From the NCBI GenBank assembly GCA_977017645.1, contig OZ360223.1, positions 47,554,001 through 47,618,000 of the forward strand: DNA of 64,000 nucleotides, written 5' to 3'. Of this stretch, positions 50,920-64,000 are shown piece after piece. The DNA is from Torpedo marmorata (lineage: Eukaryota). Every line of letters starts with the position of its first letter. Position 1 is the stretch's first letter. Under the pieces are notes generated by a model. The model was not told the origin of the DNA. It ran no database searches and saw only the letters and a program-made list of their open reading frames with translations. A program made the position numbers and the translations under genes.

Positions 50920-52038
50920 TGTAAGAGCCGTAGGCTTAATTACTTACCTTGGTCGCAGCGCTTCGATGGTCCCGGCGGGTTACGGAGGAGTCGCGGTGTT
51001 TGTAGGCCGTGCTAGGCCTATTTAGTACTTGCGCATGCGCTAGAGTGCCGTAGGGCGCATGCACAGTTGGGAATTGACGGCAGTGTGTGTGGTGGAGTGT
51101 GCGCGCTGGAGTATGCGCGGTGGAATAGGCGCAATGAGCATGTGCGAATCGGGAAAAATAATAGAAAAAGATGGCAACGGAGGAGGGTGAGTGAGATCGC
51201 CATATCTTTTATTGACCGTTTCATTGATCGTTTCATTGATGGTTTAAAGTCATTTAATTGAACATCTAAATACAGTCAAAGGAATCGTTTAAAGGAATAT
51301 ATTAAACATCGTTATCAGGAACTGTTTATTTCGTTTAAAGAAGATATTTAAGTCATTCAAGATTGCTGCAAGTCACGTGTGTAAATAAAGTTTTTTGAAC
51401 ATTTCGGACTTTGTTAGTAAATTAATTGAAACGCGTCAAAGACAAGTATCTTACCCAGCCTCCAAGTGACTATTGTTGGATTGAAGTCACTATATAATTA
51501 GTCAATGAAAGTGGTTGTTTGGAGTAGAAAATTGAAGGAAAGAAGATAGAATAATCTCTCTGTGCTTTGGACTGATATTTAAAATAAAATGGTGGCCATC
51601 TTGGAGATGCCTCGAGTTGGGGGCAGTTTGTAATCCACATCCATCTGCCATGAGTAACAGCCAGAGAGGGATTTAAAGCTTCAAATCTTATAGTAAAGTG
51701 TACTATAAATACGTTGGAGAAATTATTTTTGGAAAATCAGCGATATTATTGACGGATGTTGTGGTTGAAACTCGTTTGTGAATAGCAGCACATTACAGTC
51801 ATCTGGAGTGGTAGGCATATAAGTCTGTGGACTCCTTCTGTGTATCTTTGGCAAGTAAGAACACAGATTGGAATTGCTGCCGCCGGTCCATTGGGGACTG
51901 TTAAATTGGCTAGTGTTGTGTATGCTTGCAGGACAGTGGAACAAGACAAGTAAACTGGCCGCAGCAGCCTCTGATGCAGCAGCCACTGATGTATCAGCAA
52001 CTGACGCAGCAACTGCTGATGTTGCTGTTAAGGACCAA

Positions 52039-52155
52039 CGTATTGAAGACATGAAGGTTGCGGATATTAAAAAAGAATTGAAGCGACTGAAAAAAGATGT
52101 AAGTGGAAATAAAAAGGTTCTCATCGCAAGATTGAAGCAGGCAAAGGAAGAAGAG
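52039..52155 (+). other. SAP DNA-binding domain in the BEL gag frame (SLTM/SAFB-like)
   Basis: RIEDMKVADIKKELKRLKKDVSGNKKVLIARLKQAKEEE fits the SAP pattern; probable ATG at 51922. Confidence 0.85.
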
Positions 52156-53209
52156 GCAGCTTCGTTAGATGAACAAGAAGATAATGTGGAAATGGCTGAA
52201 ATTGTGTCACCAAATGAAGAGGATGAAGAAAATGAAGAGGATGAAGAAAATGAAGAGGATGAAGATGCAAAGGATGTACATGTCGAATTGGAGAAAGAGG
52301 TAAGTATGAAGACAACATATGACGTGCAGGACGAAATACAAGCAAGTGACAGTGTCTCAAATGCTGAAAGCAGGAGAAGCAAACAAAGTTCTGGTTCGAG
52401 CTCCAGAGTTTCTCGTACTTCAAGTTCTGCATCGTCACGTACAATGATTGATGTTAAATTGGCCGCTCTTCTTGCACAACAAAAAATGTTTAAGGATAAA
52501 CATATTTTAGAATAACAGGAGGAGCAGCTAAGACAAAAGGAGGAGCAGCTAAAGGAGCAGATAAGACAAAAGGAGGAGCAGCTAAAGGAGCAGATAAGGC
52601 AAGAGAAGGAGCAGCTAAGGCAGAGAAAAGAACAGCAGGAGCTGGAAGCAAACATTACTATTGCCAACGCAAAAAAGAAAGCAATAGAAGGCTCAATGGT
52701 ATCTGGTGCTAGAAGTAAATTATCTAAAGTGTCTGATAATAAAAGGACATATTTAAAAAAAGAGTCACAGGAAAAGAAACCAACCAAAAGGGTTGATATT
52801 TTAGAACCAGAGTTACAAGACTTACAAATACAAGGACAAATCTTTCAAGAGCATATTGATTTCGAGTCACATGTACCAGTGGTAACATCCGAAGAAAAAG
52901 CTGTGGCTTGGGTTCGGTCGAACGATGCAGCTCCCTTGTTATTTGAGTCAAGCCCATCAGAAATATGGTAGAAAATATACCAGTGAGGTTTCCAGATACA
53001 TTACCTGTAACAAGAGTCAGTGAACAGAGCAATGTATTGTCATCAAAACGAAGACAAAATGAAATTGCTACATCATTGATTCAGTTACAGTCTCTCTCTT
53101 CTTTACCCAAGAAAGAGATACAAACTTTTGATGGTGATCCACTTCAGTATCAATCATTTATGAGATCTTTCAAATGCAATATTGAAAATAAATGCCAAGA
53201 TCGTGGGGG

Positions 53210-54074
53210 CTCATTCCATCTAAATGGCGGCGCTGCCGGAGCCGCTGTAGCGGCAGCGCTGCTGCTGGTGCGGACCCGCGAGGAGCATGGGAGTGGAGAT
53301 ACAGCGCTCCAGCGGGGTCCAGCCGCCCAGTTGACTGCCGTCGGTTCCACACGGGCTTTGAACGGCCCGTTAAAGGAGCCGACGGTGGTTTTATTTGAGA
53401 TCCCGCGACCGCGGGGTCTGCGCCCAAGATGGCAGCGCCTTTTAATCGGCAGCAGCCACGAGGGGCTGCAGACTCTGGGGAAGCGGGGGACTGGAGCAGG
53501 GCACCAGAGGACGGGAAGATCACCCCCCGTCTGTTAAGGAGAAGCGGAGGAGACGACCCACAGGACGGTCACCACAGCGGCGGACCGGTGAGGGGCTCTG
53601 AGGTTGAAGGACCAGTGCATTCGGCGGGCTGCTGGCGACTCGAGGCGAGGAACCCGCGGAGGCTGTGGGCTGCTGGAGACTGCTCTCGGGGGACTCACGC
53701 CGGGCTGCGGACTGCTGGAGGCTGGCTCGAATTGGCTGGAGGAGTACCAGGTGACGGAACAGGGATGCGAGGGGGTGCCGAGGGCGACCTGACTGTGTTG
53801 GAGGTTCGGATCTGGAGCTCGGGATGCCGATCATTTGGACTGGACTCTGTGTGGCTGCAGAAGCGTTGGAGGTGTATCTACGGACACTCGGTGACTCTGG
53901 GGGGACTCTCTTTTGCTTCTCTTTCTCTGACTGTAAGGAATGTTAGAGGCGCTTAGGCAATTTCTGCCGGTGGCGAATCTGTCTGCCTTGCAGCAGGCAA
54001 AAATAAATTTCATGGAATATGACACTGTCTTATTACTATGACAATAAATTGAAACTTGAATTCTGAATCTTGAA
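53210..54074 (+). mobile_element. GC-rich non-autonomous retroelement, copy 3
   Basis: Same family as 18526; splits BEL gag between CQDRG and ECLYYLE. Confidence 0.9.
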
Positions 54075-54159
54075 TGTCTTTATTATTTGGAAATGTTCAC
54101 AAAAGGACATCCAAAAGAACATGTGAAGAGTTGTCAACATATGTCTTCAGAAAGAGGAT

Positions 54160-55103
54160 TAGAAATTAGGAAGCTTTAGACCACCCATTTCGTAGTTCCA
54201 GGTTAATTTCTCCAATCCTACTCTTGCCAACTTTCCTTTCCACAAAAATGTCCTAATAATTAAATTTAAATCCTTAAAAAACTTCTGAGGGATTTCATAA
54301 GGAATTGATTGAAAAAGATACTGAATTCTCGGAAAAACGTTCATTTTAATACAATTTACCCTTCCCATTAAAGTTATAGGCAAATCCTTCCATCTCTCCA
54401 AATCCTTTTTTATATTCACAAATAGTGGTAAATAATTTAATTTATACAAATTGGATAATTTTGTATCAATCTTTATTCCCAAATATTTAATTCCTCCCTT
54501 TGCCCATTTAAATTGTGTAATTTCTTTACAATCGCTATAGTCCCCTTGTGTTAAAGGCATAATTTCACTTTTTTCCGAGTTAATCTTGTAACCAGATATT
54601 CCCCCAAATTCTTTAAATAAAACCGACAATTGTGTTAGAGAATTAATAGGTTTTGTCATATATATCAATACGTCATCTGCAAACAAACTAATTTTGTGTT
54701 CTTCCTTACCAACTTTAATACCTGCAATCTTACTATCTTGTCTAATTAATTCGGCTAAAGGTTCTATTGCTAAAATAAACAATGCTGGCGATAAAGGACA
54801 ATCTTGTCTAGTAGACCTGGTTAAGGAAAATTTTGAAGATATTTGACCATTTGTGACCACTCTAGCAGACGGTTCTTTATATATAGTTTTAATCCAATTA
54901 ATGAATGTATTTCTAAAACCAAATTTTTCCAGTACCTTAAATAAATAATTCCACTCTAATCTATCAAAAGCCTTTTCGGCATCTAATGTTAATACTAATG
55001 ACAGTTCTTCTCTTTTTTGTGTTTAATCCGACATTATCTGGTTTATGTTTTAGATGTAATAAAGAGGAAGGTTCTTTTGTACATTCTACATGGTTTTGTC
55101 CAA
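54160..55103 (-). mobile_element. Internal L1 ORF2 fragment (minus, to ~55018) joined to a short plus-strand L1 piece, within BEL gag
   Basis: TRQDCPLSP, LFADD, GGLKLPNF on the minus strand; 55021-55103 matches 45141-45224. Confidence 0.88.
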
Positions 55104-56644
55104 AGAGCTACCTTAAAGGATTTGGTAAATTTTCTTGAACGACAGGTGTACATTGAAACAGATCCAATATATGGAAATACCAGAGATAATTCAATGGGCA
55201 AACATGTAAGGAGATCTAACACACAGCCTAGTCCGAAATTGAAAAGGAGTACTTTTGCTACTAATGTGTCCGTTGTAAATAAAGAAAAGGACAAAGTAAA
55301 TAAGGAAAAGGAAAGTTTGCCTGATGAAAATAGTTGTTTGTTCTGTAAAGGTGGACATGCTTTGGAAATGTGTTTACGATTTGAAAAGAAGGAACATAAT
55401 GAGAAGATCGCTTTCTTAAAGGAAAATGGAATATATTTTAGATGTCTGTGTAAAGGGCACATCAGTAAAAACTGCGAGAAGCGAATTAATTGTAACATAT
55501 GTAAGTTGAAACATCCTAGAATTTGCATATCCATCAAAGAAACAAGGAATTGGAAAAGGAACAAACAGAAACAAAGGAAACATCGGAAAATAACGTTATA
55601 ACCTCGGTTCAGACAAGTGGTCTTACCGGGGCCGGTATAGATAACTGCAAACTTTCAATAGTGCCTGTACGTCAAGACCAAGAAAGGGGATGCAACAGTA
55701 CATACATATGCATTTCTAGACCCAGGCAACACTGCATCTTTTTGCATGGAAGGACTAATGAACAAACTTAATATTCAAGGAAAAAGGTCAAGAATTATGT
55801 TGAAACCCATGGGAAAGAAAAGGTCATTGAAACCAGCATTGTTTCAGGCTTAGAGGTTGCTGGATTGGATGACAAAAAATGTTGTGATCTTCCAAGTTTA
55901 TACACTCAGAAGACTATGCCTGTGCATGAAGGAAATATTCCTCATCAAAATGATATCCATCATTTAGCTTATCTGTGGAAGGTTTATTTACCTGAAATTA
56001 ACTCTGAGATAGAAATGTTGATTGGTTCAGATGTGCCAAAGGTTTTGGAACCACTAGAAGTAATACAGAGTAGAAGGAATGGACCTTATGCTATTAGAAC
56101 CAAGCTTGGTTGGACAATCAATGGACCATTATAAAGAAATAATGATATTGCTCAGGAACAGTTAGCGATAAATATTAACAGGATTTCGGTTGTGAAAGTT
56201 GATGAGTTAAGGGAAGAGCAAAAGACTGTGAATAAGAAAATCACTTTTGAAGAAAAGAAAATAGATAAACATGAAAATAAACCAAAGGTATTTAAAACAA
56301 CATTGAAGGAATTATGTTCATAAGAAATGGATGAAATTGAAGTATTAGAAGATGTTGCAAATAATACTATTGATTATTCCTGTGTAATTGAATCAGATAC
56401 AGGAATAAAACAAGTGACTATAAACAAATCTGAATGTAGATTTTGTAGTACAGAGATTACAGCAGACCAAGTCAATGAAGAAATATTGCAATGTGATGTG
56501 AAAATGGAGAACGCAGAAAATTGTGCTGATGGAATAAAGAATAATGTGAATGATAATTTAATGCAATTGAATTCAGAGAACAAAATGTTGAAAGGGGAAT
56601 TGGAAATAGTAGATAATCATGAAAACAGTAAACAGAAAGATTTA

Positions 56645-56910
56645 ATTGTAAGTAAAATTCACAAAGTCAGAAAGCAGAAGAAAAGAATAACTGCTGAAGA
56701 AATGAATACAGTTATTGAGGAAAGAGATTCAGCATTATCAAAATGTAAAAGGTTGGAGGAAGAGATTAATATTTTGAAAGAGAACAAGTTATTGGTTAAT
56801 AACACAAAACAGTTGACTATAAAAAAACAATCAAGAATGTAAATTGAATGTTCAGCTATTAACAATGCAGAAAGAAAGTGATATTGTATTGCAGAAATGT
56901 AACAAGCAAG
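56645..56910 (+). pseudogene. MIPOL1: MIPOL1-like gene fragment inside the BEL element
   Basis: IVSKIHKVRKQKKRITAEEMNTVIEERDSALSKCKRLEEEI..NNTKQLT, then after a frameshift in the A-run at ~56821 NNQECKLNVQLLTMQKE. Matches recalled vertebrate MIPOL1 RITAEEMSALIEERDAALSKCKRLEQE..NNMRHLTAENNQERALKAKLLSMQ. Confidence 0.8.
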
Positions 56911-58103
56911 ATTAATTTCGCGGAAGGAACTGAGACTGAATTGAAAGTTGCAAAATTGGATTTGGAATTGCAGGAAAAGGCAATAGAAACCAAAGTGGTT
57001 AAAGAGACTCGTTTATTAAAATCGAGAGGATCAGATAAATATTCAAATTCTAATTCTAAGAGTTTAAATTCTTCACATGAGAAGTGGAATGCTGAAGAAA
57101 GGAATAAAGTGAAACGACATGCTAAAGAAGTGCCTCGTGTTAAATTCAAAAGAAATACTGTATCTATTTTGTCTGAGGGAGATTTGAGGTTTACTGGTCG
57201 ACGTTTTAACTCAAAGATTCTGGAGATAAAAGAACTTTGAAGAGACATTGTAATTATTATGGATGATTCAGCTCCTCTAAACTCCTGGTTACTTGGAAAA
57301 ATTATTGAGACTATTCAGGATAAAAGGGGACTTGTGCATCAAGTTCGAATTAAAACTAAGACTGGCTTTCTAAATAGACCTATTAACAAGGTCTGCCTTC
57401 TGTTGGAGACGGAGGAACTTTGATAAATACAAACTGACTTTATTTGTTGTTGTATACTTCACAGGTACAGACTTTTGTTGATTCAGAGTTATGGTAAACT
57501 CTGGTCTTATGAAGAAAGAAGAAAGAAGATTTGTATATTGTTTGAATGTTATATGGTTATTGTTATTCATAATTGATTGTGTAATTATTATTTAAGACAT
57601 TGTGTCTAATTATAATAATTAGGGGCTGGTGTAAGAGCCGTAGGCTTAATTACTTACCTTGGTCGCGGCGCTCCGATGGTCTCGGCAGGTTACGGAGGAG
57701 TCACGGTGTTTGTAGGCCGTGCTAGGCCTATTTAGTACTCTGCGCATGAGCTAGAGTGCCGACGGGTGCATGTGCAGTTGGGAATTGCCTTCAGTGTGTG
57801 CGGTGGAGTGTGCGTGGTGTAGTATGCGCGGTGGAGTATGTGCGGTGGAATAGGCGCAATGAGCATGCGCGAATCGGGAAAAAGAATAGAAAAAGATGGC
57901 GACGGAGGAGGGTGAGTGAGATCGCCATATCTTTAATTGACCGTTTCATTGATCGTTTCATTGATGGTTTAAAGTCATTTAATTGAACATCTAAATACAG
58001 TCAAAGGAATCGTTTAAAGGGATATATTAAACATCATTATCAAGAACTGTTTATTTCATTTAAAGAAGATATTTAAGTCATTGAAGATTGCTGCAAGTCA
58101 CGT

Positions 58104-58487
58104 ACTGTCCAAATTCTTCTTAAATGTTAAAATTGAGCCTGCATTCACCACTTCAGCTGGCAGCTCGTTCCACACTCCCACCACTCTCTGTGTGAAGAAG
58201 TTCCCCCTCATGTTCCCTCTAAAGTTTTCCCCTTTCACCCTTAACCCACGTCCTCTGGTTTGTATCTCACCTACCCTCAGTGGAAAAAGCCTACCTACAT
58301 TTACTCTGCCTATCCCTCATAATTTTAAATACCTCTATCAAATCTCCCCTCATTCTTCTATGCTCCAGGGAATAAAGTCCTAACTTGTTTAACCTTTCCC
58401 TGTAACTCAGTTCCTGAAGTCCGGGTAACATCCGAGTAAATCTTCCCTGTACTCTTTCTATCTTATTGATATCTTTCCTGTAGTTAG
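58104..58487 (-). mobile_element. CR1 3' fragment
   Basis: Reverse complement of NFFTQRVVGVWNELPAEVVNAG and KDINKIERVQGRFTRML coding sequence. Confidence 0.9.
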
Positions 58488-58515
58488 TGTGGTGATTGGA
58501 AGTTGGTGATCCTCC

Positions 58516-58533
58516 TGACCACTAGAGGGCGTC
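58516..58533 (+). promoter_or_regulatory. CTCF-like motif in the Gypsy LTR
   Basis: tgaCCACTAGAGGGCGtc matches the CTCF core CCASYAGRKGGCR. Confidence 0.6.
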
Positions 58534-60795
58534 GGAGATGGAAGGTCCCACCTCGGGTTAGATGCCCCAAATGGATGTGTCCCACGAGGTCGTGAGTTGA
58601 TAATAAAATATAATTAATACAAAAGAACCCAAGTTTCTTTATCACAATAGAAGAAACATCACATGGTATCAGGAGTCGGTATCAGCAGGAGACCTGGAGA
58701 GTGTGAAGCCGCCTGATGCTGTGAATTGGACTGGGAATGTCGACCACAAGTGGCAGTTGTTCAAACAACAATTCATGCTGTATCTGTAAGCCATTGGACT
58801 CGATAGCAAACCGGATGCACGGAAGATTGCACTGCTACTTACCGTGGCGGGACCTCAAGCACTAGAGGTTTTCAACATGTTTGTTTTTGCCGAGGCAGAT
58901 GACCAGGGCAAGTTTGACAAGGTTATCGAGATGTTTGATGGAAACTGCTCACCAAAGAAAAATGAATCATTTGAGAGGTACGTGTTTCGCTTGTGCATGC
59001 AACTGCAGACAGAAAGCTTTGATACTTTTTTTAATGGACTTGGAATTGAAAGCAAGAACATGCAATTTTGGATTGCTGCAAGATTCAATGATCCATGATC
59101 AAATTGTGTTCGGGATTATTGACAAGAAAGTGAGAGACAGGTTGCTATGAGAGACGGAGCTTACATTAGGTGGAGCTGTGAAGATATGCCACGCCAGTGA
59201 ATTAGCTCCGCAGCACACAAAAAAGTTCGGTGAGAGTGCAAGGGCAGGTGAAAACAAAGACACAGACGTAGCCACAGTGTCTGGACACACACATAAACAG
59301 AGAACGAGACATAGGAAACAACAACAAAAAGATGGAGAGACATTCAATTGTAAATGATATGGCATCCAACATGTACCAAAACAATGCCCAGCCTATGGAA
59401 AAGCCTGTAACAAGTGCAAAGGGCAGAATCACTATGCAAAGCAATGTTTTTCCAAAGGGAAACAAAACAGAAGTGAAAGTGTGCACACTATAGAAGAAAC
59501 TGCCCTCAGTGATACATTCTCCGTGGGCATGGTTAGTACAGGAAGGTTTCAAACCAACAGACACTGAACAGCCAAGCATAAACAGAGTTGAGCAGGACAA
59601 GTGGACATGGAGTGGACATTGTAAGCAAATGGAGCGGATATTCCCTTCAAGCTGGACATAGGGGCAAAGGCCAATTTGATCTGTGAGGGCGATGTCAGGG
59701 CAATGAAGATAAAGCCATACATCCATCCAAATTCTGCTCAGCTCAAGGCCTACAATGGACACCGCATTGACACGTAAGGCACATGTAGACTCAAGGTGAA
59801 AGTTAAAGGTAAAGAGCACCACCTCATGTTTGCAGTAGTCCCAGATGGACATGACTCACTGCTTGGTGACAAAGCATGTGAAAACATAGTCCTAGTCAAG
59901 AGGGTGTACTGCATTAACAGCACTAATGCACAGAACAGTGTAGAGGAAATACTGGATCAATTTCCAGACATCTTCAAGAGGTTTGGTTTTCTACCATTCA
60001 CCTATAAGATACAGTTAAAGGAGGACGCACAACCAGTAGTGCATGCCCCAAGGCGGGTTCCAGCACCACTAAAAGACAAGCTGAAGGAGGAACTCAACTG
60101 AATGACGTCACTAGGGGTCATAATGAAAGTGGAGGAGCCCACAGAATGGGTGGATTCAATGGTTTGTGTCAAAAAGAAGAACGGTGACCTACGCGTGTGC
60201 ATGGACCCAAAAGACTTGAATGTCAATATAAAGAGGGAACATTATCAGATTCCGACCAGGGATGACATTACAAGTGAGATGGCCGGTGTAAAGTTTTTCA
60301 CCAAATTGGATGCATCCCAGGGCTTCTGGCAATTAAAACTGCATGAAGATAGCACAAAATACTACACATTCAATACACCGTTTGGCCGATACTCCTGTTT
60401 AAGGATGCCTTTTGGAATTTCCTCAGCTCCTGAATTGTTCCACAGGACAATGGAGCACATCATAGAAGGCATAAATGGGGTACGTGTGTACATGGATGAC
60501 GTGATCCTATAGGGATCCACACAGGAACAACACAACGAAAGGCTCATCAAAGTGCCACAACGCATCCAGAAGTATGGATTAAAGCTAAACAGAGCAAAAT
60601 GTCAGTTTGGTGTGAAGGAAATCACCTTTCTGGGAGATAAGCTGTCGGAGGCAGGTGTGCAGCCAGACAAGAGCAAGGTGAAAGCAATTTTAGAGATGCC
60701 AAGACCCACAGACAAAAAGGGCATATTGAGAGTGCTGGGAATGATCAATTTCATTGGTAAGTTCATACCAAACCTGTCTTCCAAAACAATGTACC

Positions 60796-63152
60796 ACCGG
60801 AACTCCTAACGCCACAGCCAAGCCTACCCTAGCCTGGGTCCTGGCCGCCAACTCACCAGAGCTCCAAACGCCACGGCCGCCCACTCCTACCCGCGCCCCG
60901 GATGCCAACATGACGGTACTCCCGATGCCATGGCCGTCCACTTCAACCTGAGCCCCGAGCCCCTACACACCAGAGCTCCTGACGCCTCCACTGCCGACTC
61001 CTGACGCACACTGCTACCTGCAGGAGAAGACGCTGGAGCCTCCCTCGCTGACTGCCACTAGAGTCCTTATCTCGCTACTGGATCCCACTCACTTATCTCC
61101 CTCACTACTCCTTCCCTATCCTCCTACACCTCTCCCTACTCCACCCCCATCTCCCCTTCTCTGCAACCCTCTTCTCCCCAACCCTCAGACCTCACCCCCC
61201 CTCTCTCTCTGGCTACACCCCCTACCCTCCTCTCCCCCTCTCCTACCTCTCCCACCCCCCACCTCCCCCCTCCAACCTCCCCCACCTCCCCACCCCCCAC
61301 CTTTCCCCCCCTCTGACCTCCTCAACCACCCTCCCCCCGCCAACACTCCCAACCCCCCTCCTCCACTCTCCAACCTCCCCCACCTTCCATCTCCACCCTC
61401 GGACCTCCCCAATCCTCCCCCTCCCCCCAACACCCTCCACAACACCGATCCCCACTCTAACCCCTGCTTGGTTTTTACTATCCCCTCTGACCTACCCCTC
61501 TCTGAGACGGAGCGCTCGGTCCTCAGGAGAGGCTTCACCTTCGTCCCCCTCCACCAACACCTCAACAAGTTCCACGCACGCCGCGATGCCGAACACTTCT
61601 TCCGTCGCCTCTGCCTCTGGGCTCACTTCCATGACCATAACTCTCCACCCCCCACCCAAGACCCTTTCTCCCGCTTCAAGCCTTCTTCCTCTCCCTGGAT
61701 ACCTCGTCCTGGCCAGCTGCCCGCTCTGGACCTTTTTATTTCCAACTGCCGCCGAGACATCAACCATCTCAACTTCACCACCCCCCTCTCGTATTCCAAC
61801 CTCACCTCCTCAGAACGCTCTGCCCTCCACTCTCTCCGCAACAATCCCAACCTCACCATCAAACCCGCAGACAAGGGCGGTGCAGTTGTGGTCTGGCGCA
61901 CTGACGTCTACCTTGCCGAGGCCAGTCGACAGCTCTCAGACACCTCCTCCTATCGACCCCTCTCACAGGACCCCACCACTACACATCAAGCCACTGTCTC
62001 CAACACCATCTCCAACCTCACACCCTGTCCCCTGCAAGGATTCCATCCCCTTCCCTCAATTTCTCCGTCTCCGCCGCATCTGTTCCCAAGATGAGGTCTA
62101 CCAGTCTGAAATGTCTGCCTTCTAACACAAACGTGGCTTCCCCTCCACCACCATCAACTCGGCCCTCACCCGCCTCTCCTCCATTTCCCACTCATCTGCT
62201 CTGGCCCCCTCTGCCCCCAGACGCAACAAACATAGAATCCCCCTCATCCTCACCTACCACCCCACCAGCCTCCACATCCAACACATTATCCGCCGGAATT
62301 TCCGGCACCTACTACAGGATCCCACCACCAGACACATTTTTCCTTCTCCTCCCCTCTCGGCCTTCTGCAGGGACCACTCCCACCGCGGTTCCCTCGTGCA
62401 TTCATCCCTCCCCACCCATCGCACCCCCGGCACCTGCCCCTGTGCCCGTAGAAGGTGCAACACTTGCGCCTACACCTCCTCCCTCACCATGGTCCGGGGC
62501 CCCAAACAGGCCTTCCAAGTGAAGCAAAACTTCACTTGTACATCCAGACAACTTATTTACTGCATCCAGTGCTCCCTTTGTGGCATTCTACCGGTCGTAG
62601 ATTGGGAGATCGCTTTGCTGAGCACCTCCTCTCTGTCCGCAACAACAGCGACCTCCCAGTAGCCAACCATTTCAATTCCAAGTCACACTCCCACAGTCAC
62701 ATGTCTGTCCATGGCCTTATGTACTATCCCACCCAGACCACCAGCAAATTGGAGGAACAACACCTTATTTTCCGTCTCGGCACTCTCCAGCCAGATGGCA
62801 TTAACATTGACTTTTCTGCTTTCCACTAAACCTGCTCACCTTTTCCTTCCCCTCCCCCTTCCCTGTCCTTCCAGTTTTTCCACCCACCCAGCCATCCCTC
62901 CTCCCCCTCATTGCTGCTGTCCCCTCCCTCCTTTCTCCACCTATCATCTCCTGCCTTTGCCACCCCCCTTCCACCCCTCACTCTTTTGTTCGGACGCCTG
63001 CCGGCATTTTCTCATACTTTGATGAAGGGCTCAAGCCCGAAATGTCGGTTATGTATTTCTACCTTTGCCACTGTTTGACCTGCTGAGCTTCTCCAGCATT
63101 TATGTTTTTACTTCAAACCACGGTGTCTACAGATTTACGTGATTTACTTTTT
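60796..63152 (+). mobile_element. Penelope-like element with the RT core deleted
   Basis: N-domain LS..ERSVLRRGFTFVP, IKPADKGGAVVVW; jumps at ~62018 to thumb HPVPCKDSIPFPQFLRLRRICS; GIY-YIG-type FTCTS..LIYCIQC..C, RFAEH, PVANHF, LGTLQPDGIN; 8-bp TSD aatgtacc (60788-60795/63153-63160). Confidence 0.93.
63013..63053 (+). ncRNA. Minimal type I hammerhead motif in the Penelope 3' terminus
   Basis: uUGAUGA-a-gggc-ucaa-gccc-GAAA-uguc (cguc in the 16.7 kb copy), with stem I cata/tatg; the usual position for Penelope hammerheads. Confidence 0.75.
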
Positions 63153-63808
63153 AATGTACCTGAGGGATTTGTTACATGACAAATGTGAATTCAAGTGGAC
63201 GGCCAACGAGGAGGAAGAATGGGGACGACTGAAGACCATTCTAACTACAGAACCAGGGCTTTTGACGTTCTTTGACCCATCCAGAAGGACGAAAATATCT
63301 ACGGATGCTTCAAATATGGAATAGGTGCTGTACTACTTCAGGCTGTGGGAGAAGATTGGAGGCCAGTTGCATACGCATCAAGGACGATGACCACATCTGA
63401 ATGTCGTTATGTTTAGATAGAGAAAGAGTGCCTAGGTCTGGTCTATGGACTCGAGAAATTCCACAGTTATGTGTATGGTCTACCTGTGGCAGAGACAGAC
63501 CACAAGCCATTAATAGTGATAATCAAGAAAAACCTCAGTGAGATGTCACCACGAATCGAAAGACTGATGATGAAGCTACAATGTTATGACTTTGAATTGC
63601 TGTACACACCAGGGAAACTTATTGTGCTGGCTGATGCGCTGTCCAGGGCAACGACGCAGAGTGAAGCACACAATAAGAGTTCCACACAGATGTGGATCTC
63701 CACGTGAACCTGATCACTGAATCTCTTCCCGTATCTGACATGAAATCCAAGCAGATTGCAGCTGAAACAAAAAAGGACATAGTTCTACAGAAAGGTCATC
63801 AAGAATCG

Positions 63809-64000
63809 GTTACATTGCTATTACATGGAAATCTGATGTAGATTTAGGGTTAGAGAGATGGCATGCAGAACTTCGTTCATGTATACCACTTGAAAAAATT
63901 ACTTATAATTTACGTAATAAATACCATTTCTTTTTGAAAATATGGAGCCCATATATAAAAACTGTTGGTTTAAGGATTTGAAGATCTCTAGACATCGGAT
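63809..64000 (+). mobile_element. L1 3' fragment running off the window
   Basis: Nearly identical to 45402-45590 (IAITWKSDVDLGLERWHAELRSC). Confidence 0.92.

Follow-up and report, generated by a model that had tools for sequence, protein, structure and literature searches.

The stretch analysed here (the window) comprises 64,000 nucleotides of the 6.2 Gb genome of Torpedo marmorata (contig OZ360223.1; G000:C22:47554001-47618000). At 50920..58103 it contains a BEL/Pao-type long terminal repeat (LTR) element in which the polymerase (pol) core has given way to pieces of three host genes, BRCA1, MIPOL1 and ELOA (elongin A), joined without their introns (Table 1). The element belongs to a multi-copy BEL/Pao family that is non-autonomous, and this copy of it is decayed. 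This family unites three host sources, exact intron loss, a join of a splice donor to an upstream acceptor within MIPOL1, amplification, and a division into three subfamilies, A, B and C, of which A is the window's type.

A first-pass annotation, made from the letters of the window, had described the LTRs, the polypurine tract (PPT), gag, protease and integrase C-terminus as retained around a missing core of reverse transcriptase (RT), RNase H and integrase. Both parts of this description hold. The LTR pair (433 of 459 aligned bases identical), the Cys/His knuckles and the DUF5641 tail were located, and a Pfam scan of 12 frames, which recovered SAP and DUF5641, found neither RT nor RNase H nor an integrase core on the plus strand of the window copy. 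The place of the core, between the motifs TKLGW..NRISV (~56100-56190) and RDIVII (given earlier as GDIVII), is taken by ~1 kb of same-strand coding-like DNA. This segment had been called largely open, which is true of the family, where one natural copy can be read in one frame over 756 aa, starting at the knuckles and passing through protease and cargo up to the DUF5641 end, but not of the window copy, whose replaced segment is interrupted by stops at 56323, 56842 and 57240 and by frame changes. The 3' LTR is cut short at 58104 by a fragment of a long interspersed nuclear element (LINE), and because of this truncation no target-site duplication is readable in the window. Rfam gave no match on one full copy.

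Two insertions are private to the window copy, since neither occurs in any of the 18 copies (of 20 fetched) that cover this part of the element. The first is a repeat with matches in 22 of 284 loci, and the second, an inverted LINE fragment, took the place of ~285 nt of gag. The insertions had escaped the first-pass annotation, as had the identities of the three genes, the back-splice junction and the frame-only selection described below.

Table 1. Features of the element at 50920..58103 of the window (inner end of the 5' LTR and limits of the PPT approximate)
Feature	Position	Strand	Evidence
5' LTR (~575 nt)	50920..51497	+	LTR comparison
gag N-terminal half: acidic tract, SDSVSN motif, coiled-coil repeats	51925..53205	+	common to RT-bearing relatives
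SAP domain, gag N-terminus	52042..52143	+	Pfam PF02037 E 3.9e-9; in 10/12 parent loci
private insertion, unrelated GC-rich repeat	53206..54070	.	not at this place in other copies
private insertion, inverted LINE RT fragment	54164..55102	-	RVT_1 E 5.9e-24
gag C-terminus with three Cys/His knuckles, then aspartic protease to switch point	55103..56216	+	88-93% identity to RT-bearing parents
BRCA1 fragment: 3' part of one exon and start of large central exon	56217..56645	+	8.7 kb intron absent; 70% and 79% nt identity
MIPOL1 exons A1 (3' part), A2, A3 (5' part), spliced	56638..56915	+	29 and 78 kb introns absent; 82-87% nt identity
site of ~87 nt deletion that removed the A3-end/exon-B-start junction in this copy	56911..56924	+	copy comparison
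MIPOL1 exon C, upstream of A1-A3 in host gene	56925..56997	+	89% nt identity
ELOA, two exon pieces with 37-codon internal deletion	56997..57218	+	82% and 90% nt identity
DUF5641 tail (integrase C-terminus), normal BEL ORF end	57241..57423	+	Pfam PF18701 E 1.6e-11
polypurine tract	57618..57629	+	read in sequence
3' LTR, truncated by LINE fragment	57630..58103	+	LTR comparison

A non-autonomous BEL/Pao family and its RT-bearing relatives

All copy sets used here are top-scoring matches and not random samples. A genome search with 56130-57440 gave 5452 first-look candidates (5927 and 2704 for two further queries), and 40 of these were scored, most of them at 96%. The figures count candidates; thousands of copies are likely and tens of thousands are possible. 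The same cargo replaces pol in all 20 copies fetched with flanks, which bears out the earlier suggestion of a propagated family over a one-off event. The copies are dispersed across many contigs, with target duplications of their own in several of them. For example, 5-bp duplications flank L038, L041, L149 and L228, and also L033 with one mismatch. The LTRs of subfamily A (L033, L038, L041) end in TA rather than CA despite these 5-bp duplications, while those of subfamily B end in CA.

Membership of BEL/Pao is indicated by paired LTRs with 5-bp duplications, a gag with DUF1759 (E 1.5e-6 in family protein P0003) and knuckles, a protease, and a PPT. Three knuckles were read directly in P0002 and P0003. 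The protease is weak by Pfam alone (E 0.07), and its LDPGS motif is kept in both proteins. The single open reading frame (ORF) with RT, RNase H/Peptidase_A17 and integrase that characterises autonomous elements was found neither in the window nor in any of the 20 copies. Since the pol core is absent here and present in the parent family, the cargo family is a non-autonomous derivative.

A candidate for the autonomous partner foreseen in the first-pass annotation is an RT-bearing parent family of the same genome, whose ORF has DUF1759, RVT_1, Peptidase_A17, an integrase zinc finger, rve and DUF5641 together. With these autonomous BEL/Pao elements (Belpaoviridae) the cargo family has in common the LTRs (71-93% identity over the aligned parts), gag-protease (88-93%), the integrase tail (81-95%) and SAP, whereas it has none of their RT, Peptidase_A17, integrase zinc finger and rve. 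Another RT-bearing family (~72% identity, LTRs of ~400 nt), taken at first as the direct parent, was dropped for this closer one.

The SAP domain had been proposed as a captured host fragment at the gag N-terminus. Its presence is confirmed, but its capture is not, as the same SAP occurs in 10 of 12 RT-bearing parent loci (six whole, four half) and a more distant RT-bearing sister family also carries it. Hence SAP is native to this BEL lineage. Capture from the host by the cargo family is rejected for SAP and the gag N-terminus alike, both being common to RT-bearing relatives. Among the cargo-bearing copies, SAP is found in four of eight B loci and, as a weak match, in one of 20 C loci. For a possible older transfer of SAP from a host to a remote BEL ancestor, an Atlas look-up returned only leads below 0.8.

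Host genes in the cargo and the reversed MIPOL1 junction

The middle part of the cargo is MIPOL1, with 114 matches among 4120 candidates, the same two Pfam domains in all of them and a best E of 1e-37. The first part corresponds to residues 201-354 of a skate BRCA1 protein (50%, E 6e-32) and the last to elongin A (88% to that of Narcine); the closest named proteins are those of the electric ray Narcine bancroftii. The host genes MIPOL1, BRCA1 and ELOA lie on three separate contigs (C40, C61 and C41, respectively), and the window cargo is 70-90% identical to their exons at the nucleotide level. Introns are missing at exact splice sites, and therefore the templates were processed RNAs, in agreement with the spliced host origin first proposed for this segment. 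Intron-less host sequence in place of internal ORFs, between two LTRs, is the arrangement of an LTR-mediated retrocopy. The first-pass description of the whole segment as coiled-coil applies to its MIPOL1 third only, the remainder being derived from BRCA1, without the RING and BRCT domains, and from ELOA. Likewise, the fragments had been noted as A-rich like the element; the A fraction of the cargo is 0.44 against 0.38 in the host pieces, so that the cargo has drifted towards the composition of the element.

The ELOA origin in the diverged subfamilies was recognised only via subfamily C. The ELOA piece of the diverged subfamilies alone had no relative in the Atlas, a homolog search gave 50 candidates, none of them scored, and in a further search it was not among the best stretches. 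The segment after MIPOL1 in subfamily B was also considered as an integrase remnant, which is ruled out by its match to ELOA. At the start of the large BRCA1 exon, the cassette (window 56330-56348) keeps 2-3 codons that the skate protein has and the host BRCA1 (G000:C61:25488549) lacks. The capture is likely to predate the deletion of these codons in host BRCA1.

The exons of host MIPOL1 are ordered B, C, D, a small exon, A1, A2 and A3, and 206 kb lie between the start of B and the end of A3. In the element, the final base of A3 is followed directly by the opening base of exon B in 30 of 30 C loci, which were chosen by likeness to exons B and C without regard to the join. Of 30 loci each, 27 in A and 29 in B have the same join. 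Deletions of 87-90 nt removed it from L002, L003 and the window copy, which still shows the reversed exon order. In host MIPOL1, a GT stands directly after the end of A3 and an AG directly before the start of B. The captured sequence starts inside A1, ends inside D and stays within exons B-A3, which amounts to less than one turn of a circle, and each captured exon is single in the 400 kb locus, without exon duplication. An exact reversed exon-exon junction, confinement to the exons of the circle and the lack of a genomic duplication are the features of sequence derived from a circular RNA (circRNA). The reversed join is thus most likely the signature of back-splicing in a captured circRNA, and a circular template would be its simplest reading.

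A linear template is an unlikely source of the join, be it an mRNA with trans-spliced or repeated exons, a tandem duplication of B-A3 that existed only transiently, or an RT switch that fell by chance on both exon ends at a 2-3 nt overlap. Such an overlap is present at any join of this kind, and the circle is putative; other routes to non-colinear junctions are noted in the circRNA pseudogene study of Dong et al. (2016; PMC4897178), and the retrocopy survey of Tan et al. (2016; PMC5131818) includes one Drosophila element with switches near exon junctions. A linear origin would nevertheless have to yield an exact join in every C locus, where a random switch at both exon ends has a chance of ~2e-4 (a rough value, some exon lengths being approximate), from a locus that at present has no exon duplication, and with the captured piece confined to B-A3. 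In addition, such joins arise far more often by back-splicing than by any other route.

Exon B (G000:C40:64591881) has tandem AG acceptors three bases apart, of which the back-splice used the first. A literature search for circMIPOL1 found no paper. In the 590 kb fetched for the host genes there are four cargo-bearing copies, all of them in the 400 kb MIPOL1 region and inside MIPOL1 itself (G000:C40:64320001-64720000, L053-L092), with none in the 120 kb at BRCA1 and none in the 70 kb at ELOA. This may reflect chance, a high overall density or a bias.

Subfamilies, probable backbone exchange and selection on the frame

The three subfamilies differ by in-frame deletions and by backbone. Subfamily C, recovered by a search with two host exons, is 92-98% identical to most host exons. 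Its cargo consists of four BRCA1 exons, MIPOL1 A1-A2-A3-B-C with the start of D, a linker of ~20-24 nt (L233:1765-1787) and four ELOA exon pieces, with three exact intron losses in BRCA1, four in MIPOL1 and two in ELOA. Natural C copies keep one frame across BRCA1-MIPOL1 (413 aa) and one across MIPOL1-ELOA (242 aa). Subfamily B has the 5' junctions of A and no DUF5641 tail, and its MIPOL1 exon B is joined directly to ELOA. The subfamilies have deleted different parts, among them, in A and B, the entire elongin A domain. The linker matched nothing in the loci compared; it starts like the LTR of the element and may represent a fourth template.

Microhomologies of 5-6 nt are seen at the BEL-to-BRCA1 join and of 8 nt at the BRCA1-to-MIPOL1 join of A and B, and of 6 nt at the B-to-C deletion. 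A and B are deletion derivatives, with their joins on 5-8 nt. These microhomology joins are secondary, while the original joins in C show ~2 nt or the unexplained linker.

Trees were built from 24 and 34 rows with at most eight copies per group, excluding copies too short over the region. The BRCA1-piece tree places C with the host (100/100) and A as a long-branched clade among B copies, the order of the cargo being C with the host, then B, then A. In the protease tree, C groups with the distant sister family and A is mixed with the RT-bearing parents (94/89). The backbone of C is 75-80% identical to these parents and that of A 88-93%. The backbone identities and the conflicting trees together suggest that the cassette changed its backbone by recombination with helpers. 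Terminal branches are alike in all three groups, mostly 0.01-0.04, and the additional ~0.15 divergence of A from the host would hence have arisen in the replicating lineage.

Codons were counted against the commonest codon of each column in 26 A, 30 B, 30 C and 20 parent loci (four of five tandem duplicates were dropped from the A set), and compared with neutral simulations under the same mutation spectrum (n=300). In the knuckles and protease, the ratio of nonsynonymous to synonymous change (dN/dS) is 0.23 (A-B), 0.25 (A-C) and 0.32 (B-C) against a neutral ~0.62, with 0 of 300 simulations as low. This region is under purifying selection; the gag core gives a weaker signal (0.29, 0.45, 0.61). 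The cargo is neutral in its amino acids, with 0.81, 0.70 and 0.69 against neutral values of 0.85, 0.71 and 0.75. The dN/dS comparison among copies that had been suggested at first pass points to purifying selection in the knuckles and protease and to neutral change in the cargo.

No stop is fixed in the cargo, where 7-10 were expected and 0 of 300 simulations ended without one. Against host exons, fixed stops number zero in A (161 differences in 354 codons), B (122 in 358) and C (52 in 591), the counts of A and B not being independent as the two share history. Stops do occur among private changes (A 16/220, B 28/490, C 36/676). Similarly, the modal spacing between anchors is a multiple of three in 11 of 11 A intervals and in all 10 B intervals listed, and is in frame in C except for two sparse 3' intervals, one of which is the join to BEL. 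In A, B and the parents, ~190-230 nt separate the ORF end from the PPT. Since cargo amino acids are neutral and no stop is fixed, it is the frame that is selected and not the host protein. Neither is the frame kept to deliver DUF5641, as B lacks this domain.

It is improbable that the cargo peptide itself helps the element, as a coiled-coil scaffold of the particle or as a decoy for BRCA1/elongin complexes. The intact frame through every A and B junction and the persistence of the MIPOL1 coiled coil and the BRCA1 piece in all three subfamilies would suit such a role, as would the lower dN/dS of ELOA against the host (0.24-0.48), but host comparisons are lowered by synonymous change in the host lineage and the between-subfamily values equal the neutral expectation. 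A functional peptide would also fit poorly with the different deletions per subfamily, the loss of the elongin A domain in two of them, and a BRCA1 piece without RING and BRCT. A shade less credible still is an effect at the RNA level, in which small RNAs directed at the element would also target BRCA1, ELOA and MIPOL1 and thereby impair silencing or DNA repair. In favour of this, BRCA1 may plausibly counteract retroelements, and C copies are close enough to the host exons for cross-targeting. A precedent has been proposed for Drosophila telomeric elements, with anti-silencing capture (PMC13534243), but that study found almost no host-mapping PIWI-interacting RNAs (piRNAs) at 79-82% identity, and A and B stand at 70-90%. 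Furthermore, the captured genes lie outside the piRNA pathway, and retention of the frame is left unexplained. That the cargo is a pure passenger with nothing selected is largely refuted, for although its amino-acid change is neutral and microhomology deletions in coding DNA somewhat favour in-frame outcomes, stops are missing and every modal A and B junction is in frame.

Some further observations concern the distribution of the family. At L047 and L048 (G000:C42:30183000-30210000), internally deleted copies repeat head to tail every ~3.9 kb, and the units share LTRs and are 98-99.5% identical to one another. At L259 (G000:C59:41764000-41772000), an A-type and a C-type copy stand in tandem with an LTR-like stretch in common. 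Between 0.22 and 0.80 of the sampled words occur in sequencing runs X1-X5, which carry four organism labels; no RNA run is listed among such runs, the RNA label of X3 being tentative. Runs X2 and X4 show a 183-nt skip that matches the DUF5641-tail loss of subfamily B. In a comparison that took in runs with shares of at least 0.2 and, in addition, X13, contigs of X2, X3 and X4 cover 30 of 30 bins of the stretch and those of X13 five of 30, with no listed piece spanning it. The family is likely to span several species. Beside the element, 58488-64000 of the window is occupied by the decayed remains of another LTR element. It has a TGG primer site, is Gypsy-like by its motifs and is broken by a C-rich LINE-like fragment at ~60800-63100.

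Proposed origin and relation to known systems

We consider it probable that the spliced BRCA1, MIPOL1 and ELOA sequences entered a BEL/Pao element by template switching, that the MIPOL1 template was a circle, and that the cargo has been kept as an open-frame stuffer. Host RNAs would have been co-packaged with the element, and the reverse transcriptase would have switched template onto them, one of these templates being the putative back-spliced MIPOL1 circle. The element would make its own Gag and protease and borrow RT and integrase from RT-bearing relatives. Recombination with such helpers may have renewed the backbone, with the cargo shortened by microhomology deletions. An early stop would put a variant at a replicative disadvantage, most likely because translation of the genomic RNA in cis would have to reach its usual stop ~200 nt before the PPT. 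Possible reasons are escape from the decay of RNAs with a long 3' untranslated region (3' UTR) or a translation-coupled packaging, and we propose long-3'-UTR-triggered decay as the first choice. Held with somewhat less confidence, though still favoured, is the fuller account in which a BEL/Pao RT copied across a circRNA back-splice and chained it in frame with BRCA1 and ELOA, giving rise to a high-copy ray family with the cargo surviving as a stuffer, so that the family would be a fossil giving the mechanism of circRNA pseudogenes and indicating that LTR elements need translation to the normal stop.

Several points weigh against this account. The evidence is from DNA, the circle and the expression and translation of the element being putative, and the 10 kb on either side of the presumed circle contain no strong inverted repeat (the one match is of 188 nt at 69%). 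As noted, the linker in C matched nothing in the loci compared. The bootstrap that joins A to the parents is slightly below the starred level, and dN/dS of A against the parents (0.39) is not significantly below neutral, with 8% of simulations as low. In C, only 2 of 13 cases keep the frame at the final join to BEL, several intervals have weak in-frame shares (e.g. 10/15, 5/9), and the position of the stop varies. Three apparent stop columns were also seen, which are misalignments of non-homologous B/C sequence forced onto the A reference.

Plant TR-GAG and similar gag-only non-autonomous LTR elements have lost pol and retain a gag under selection, and no captured host cargo filling the frame is known in elements of this type. 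The maize LTR element Bs1, another relevant case, is of low copy number. Its chimeric ORF holds segments from three host genes (reviewed in PMC13317346); Bs1 is a plant element of another superfamily, and the review's passages on it describe no back-splice join. Examples of LTR-mediated retrocopies in animals are mosquito BEL18 and, with two captured genes, the Pao element BATUMI of Drosophila (Tan et al., 2016). All three BEL entries in the tables of that survey are from insects, and the five zebrafish LTR cases are endogenous retrovirus (ERV), Gypsy or DIRS. As here, spliced host fragments replace the internal ORF, several genes may be joined and movement continues non-autonomously; those retrocopies have microhomology at their switch points, which here is seen at secondary joins. 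Unlike those retrocopies as described, the present family combines three genes with a back-splice join, is divided into subfamilies that have probably exchanged backbones, and shows selection on the frame that could be measured. Dong et al. (2016) reported 33 mouse pseudogenes derived from circRFWD2, with LTR-rich flanks and MMERVK10C-int marked in their Fig. S1; in their account the mechanism is left open and the copies are treated as pseudogenes. These copies resemble ours in the non-colinear exon-exon junction, the lack of a poly(A) tail, the number of copies and the LTR association, whereas the junction here lies inside a defined LTR element between mapped switch points, in frame with gag-protease and two further genes.

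Multi-gene LTR capture and circRNA-derived pseudogenes are thus each already known separately, and their probable union in an amplified vertebrate BEL family is a previously undescribed variant of LTR-mediated gene capture. A literature search, with most subscription papers, Repbase and Dfam outside its range, found no report of this family, of a vertebrate BEL gene carrier or of a circRNA inside an LTR polyprotein.

For the reverse transcription of circRNAs into genomes, a join that lies between mapped switch points points to co-packaging and template switching. If this is true, the family is a molecular fossil that records a past germline circRNA. Through its neutral cargo without fixed stops, the family also offers a natural experiment on the full-length frame required by LTR RNAs. 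In this lineage, what are likely thousands of fragments of BRCA1, MIPOL1 and ELOA at 70-98% identity will confound read mapping, annotation and circRNA calling, and the same fragments could feed small RNAs against the three host genes.

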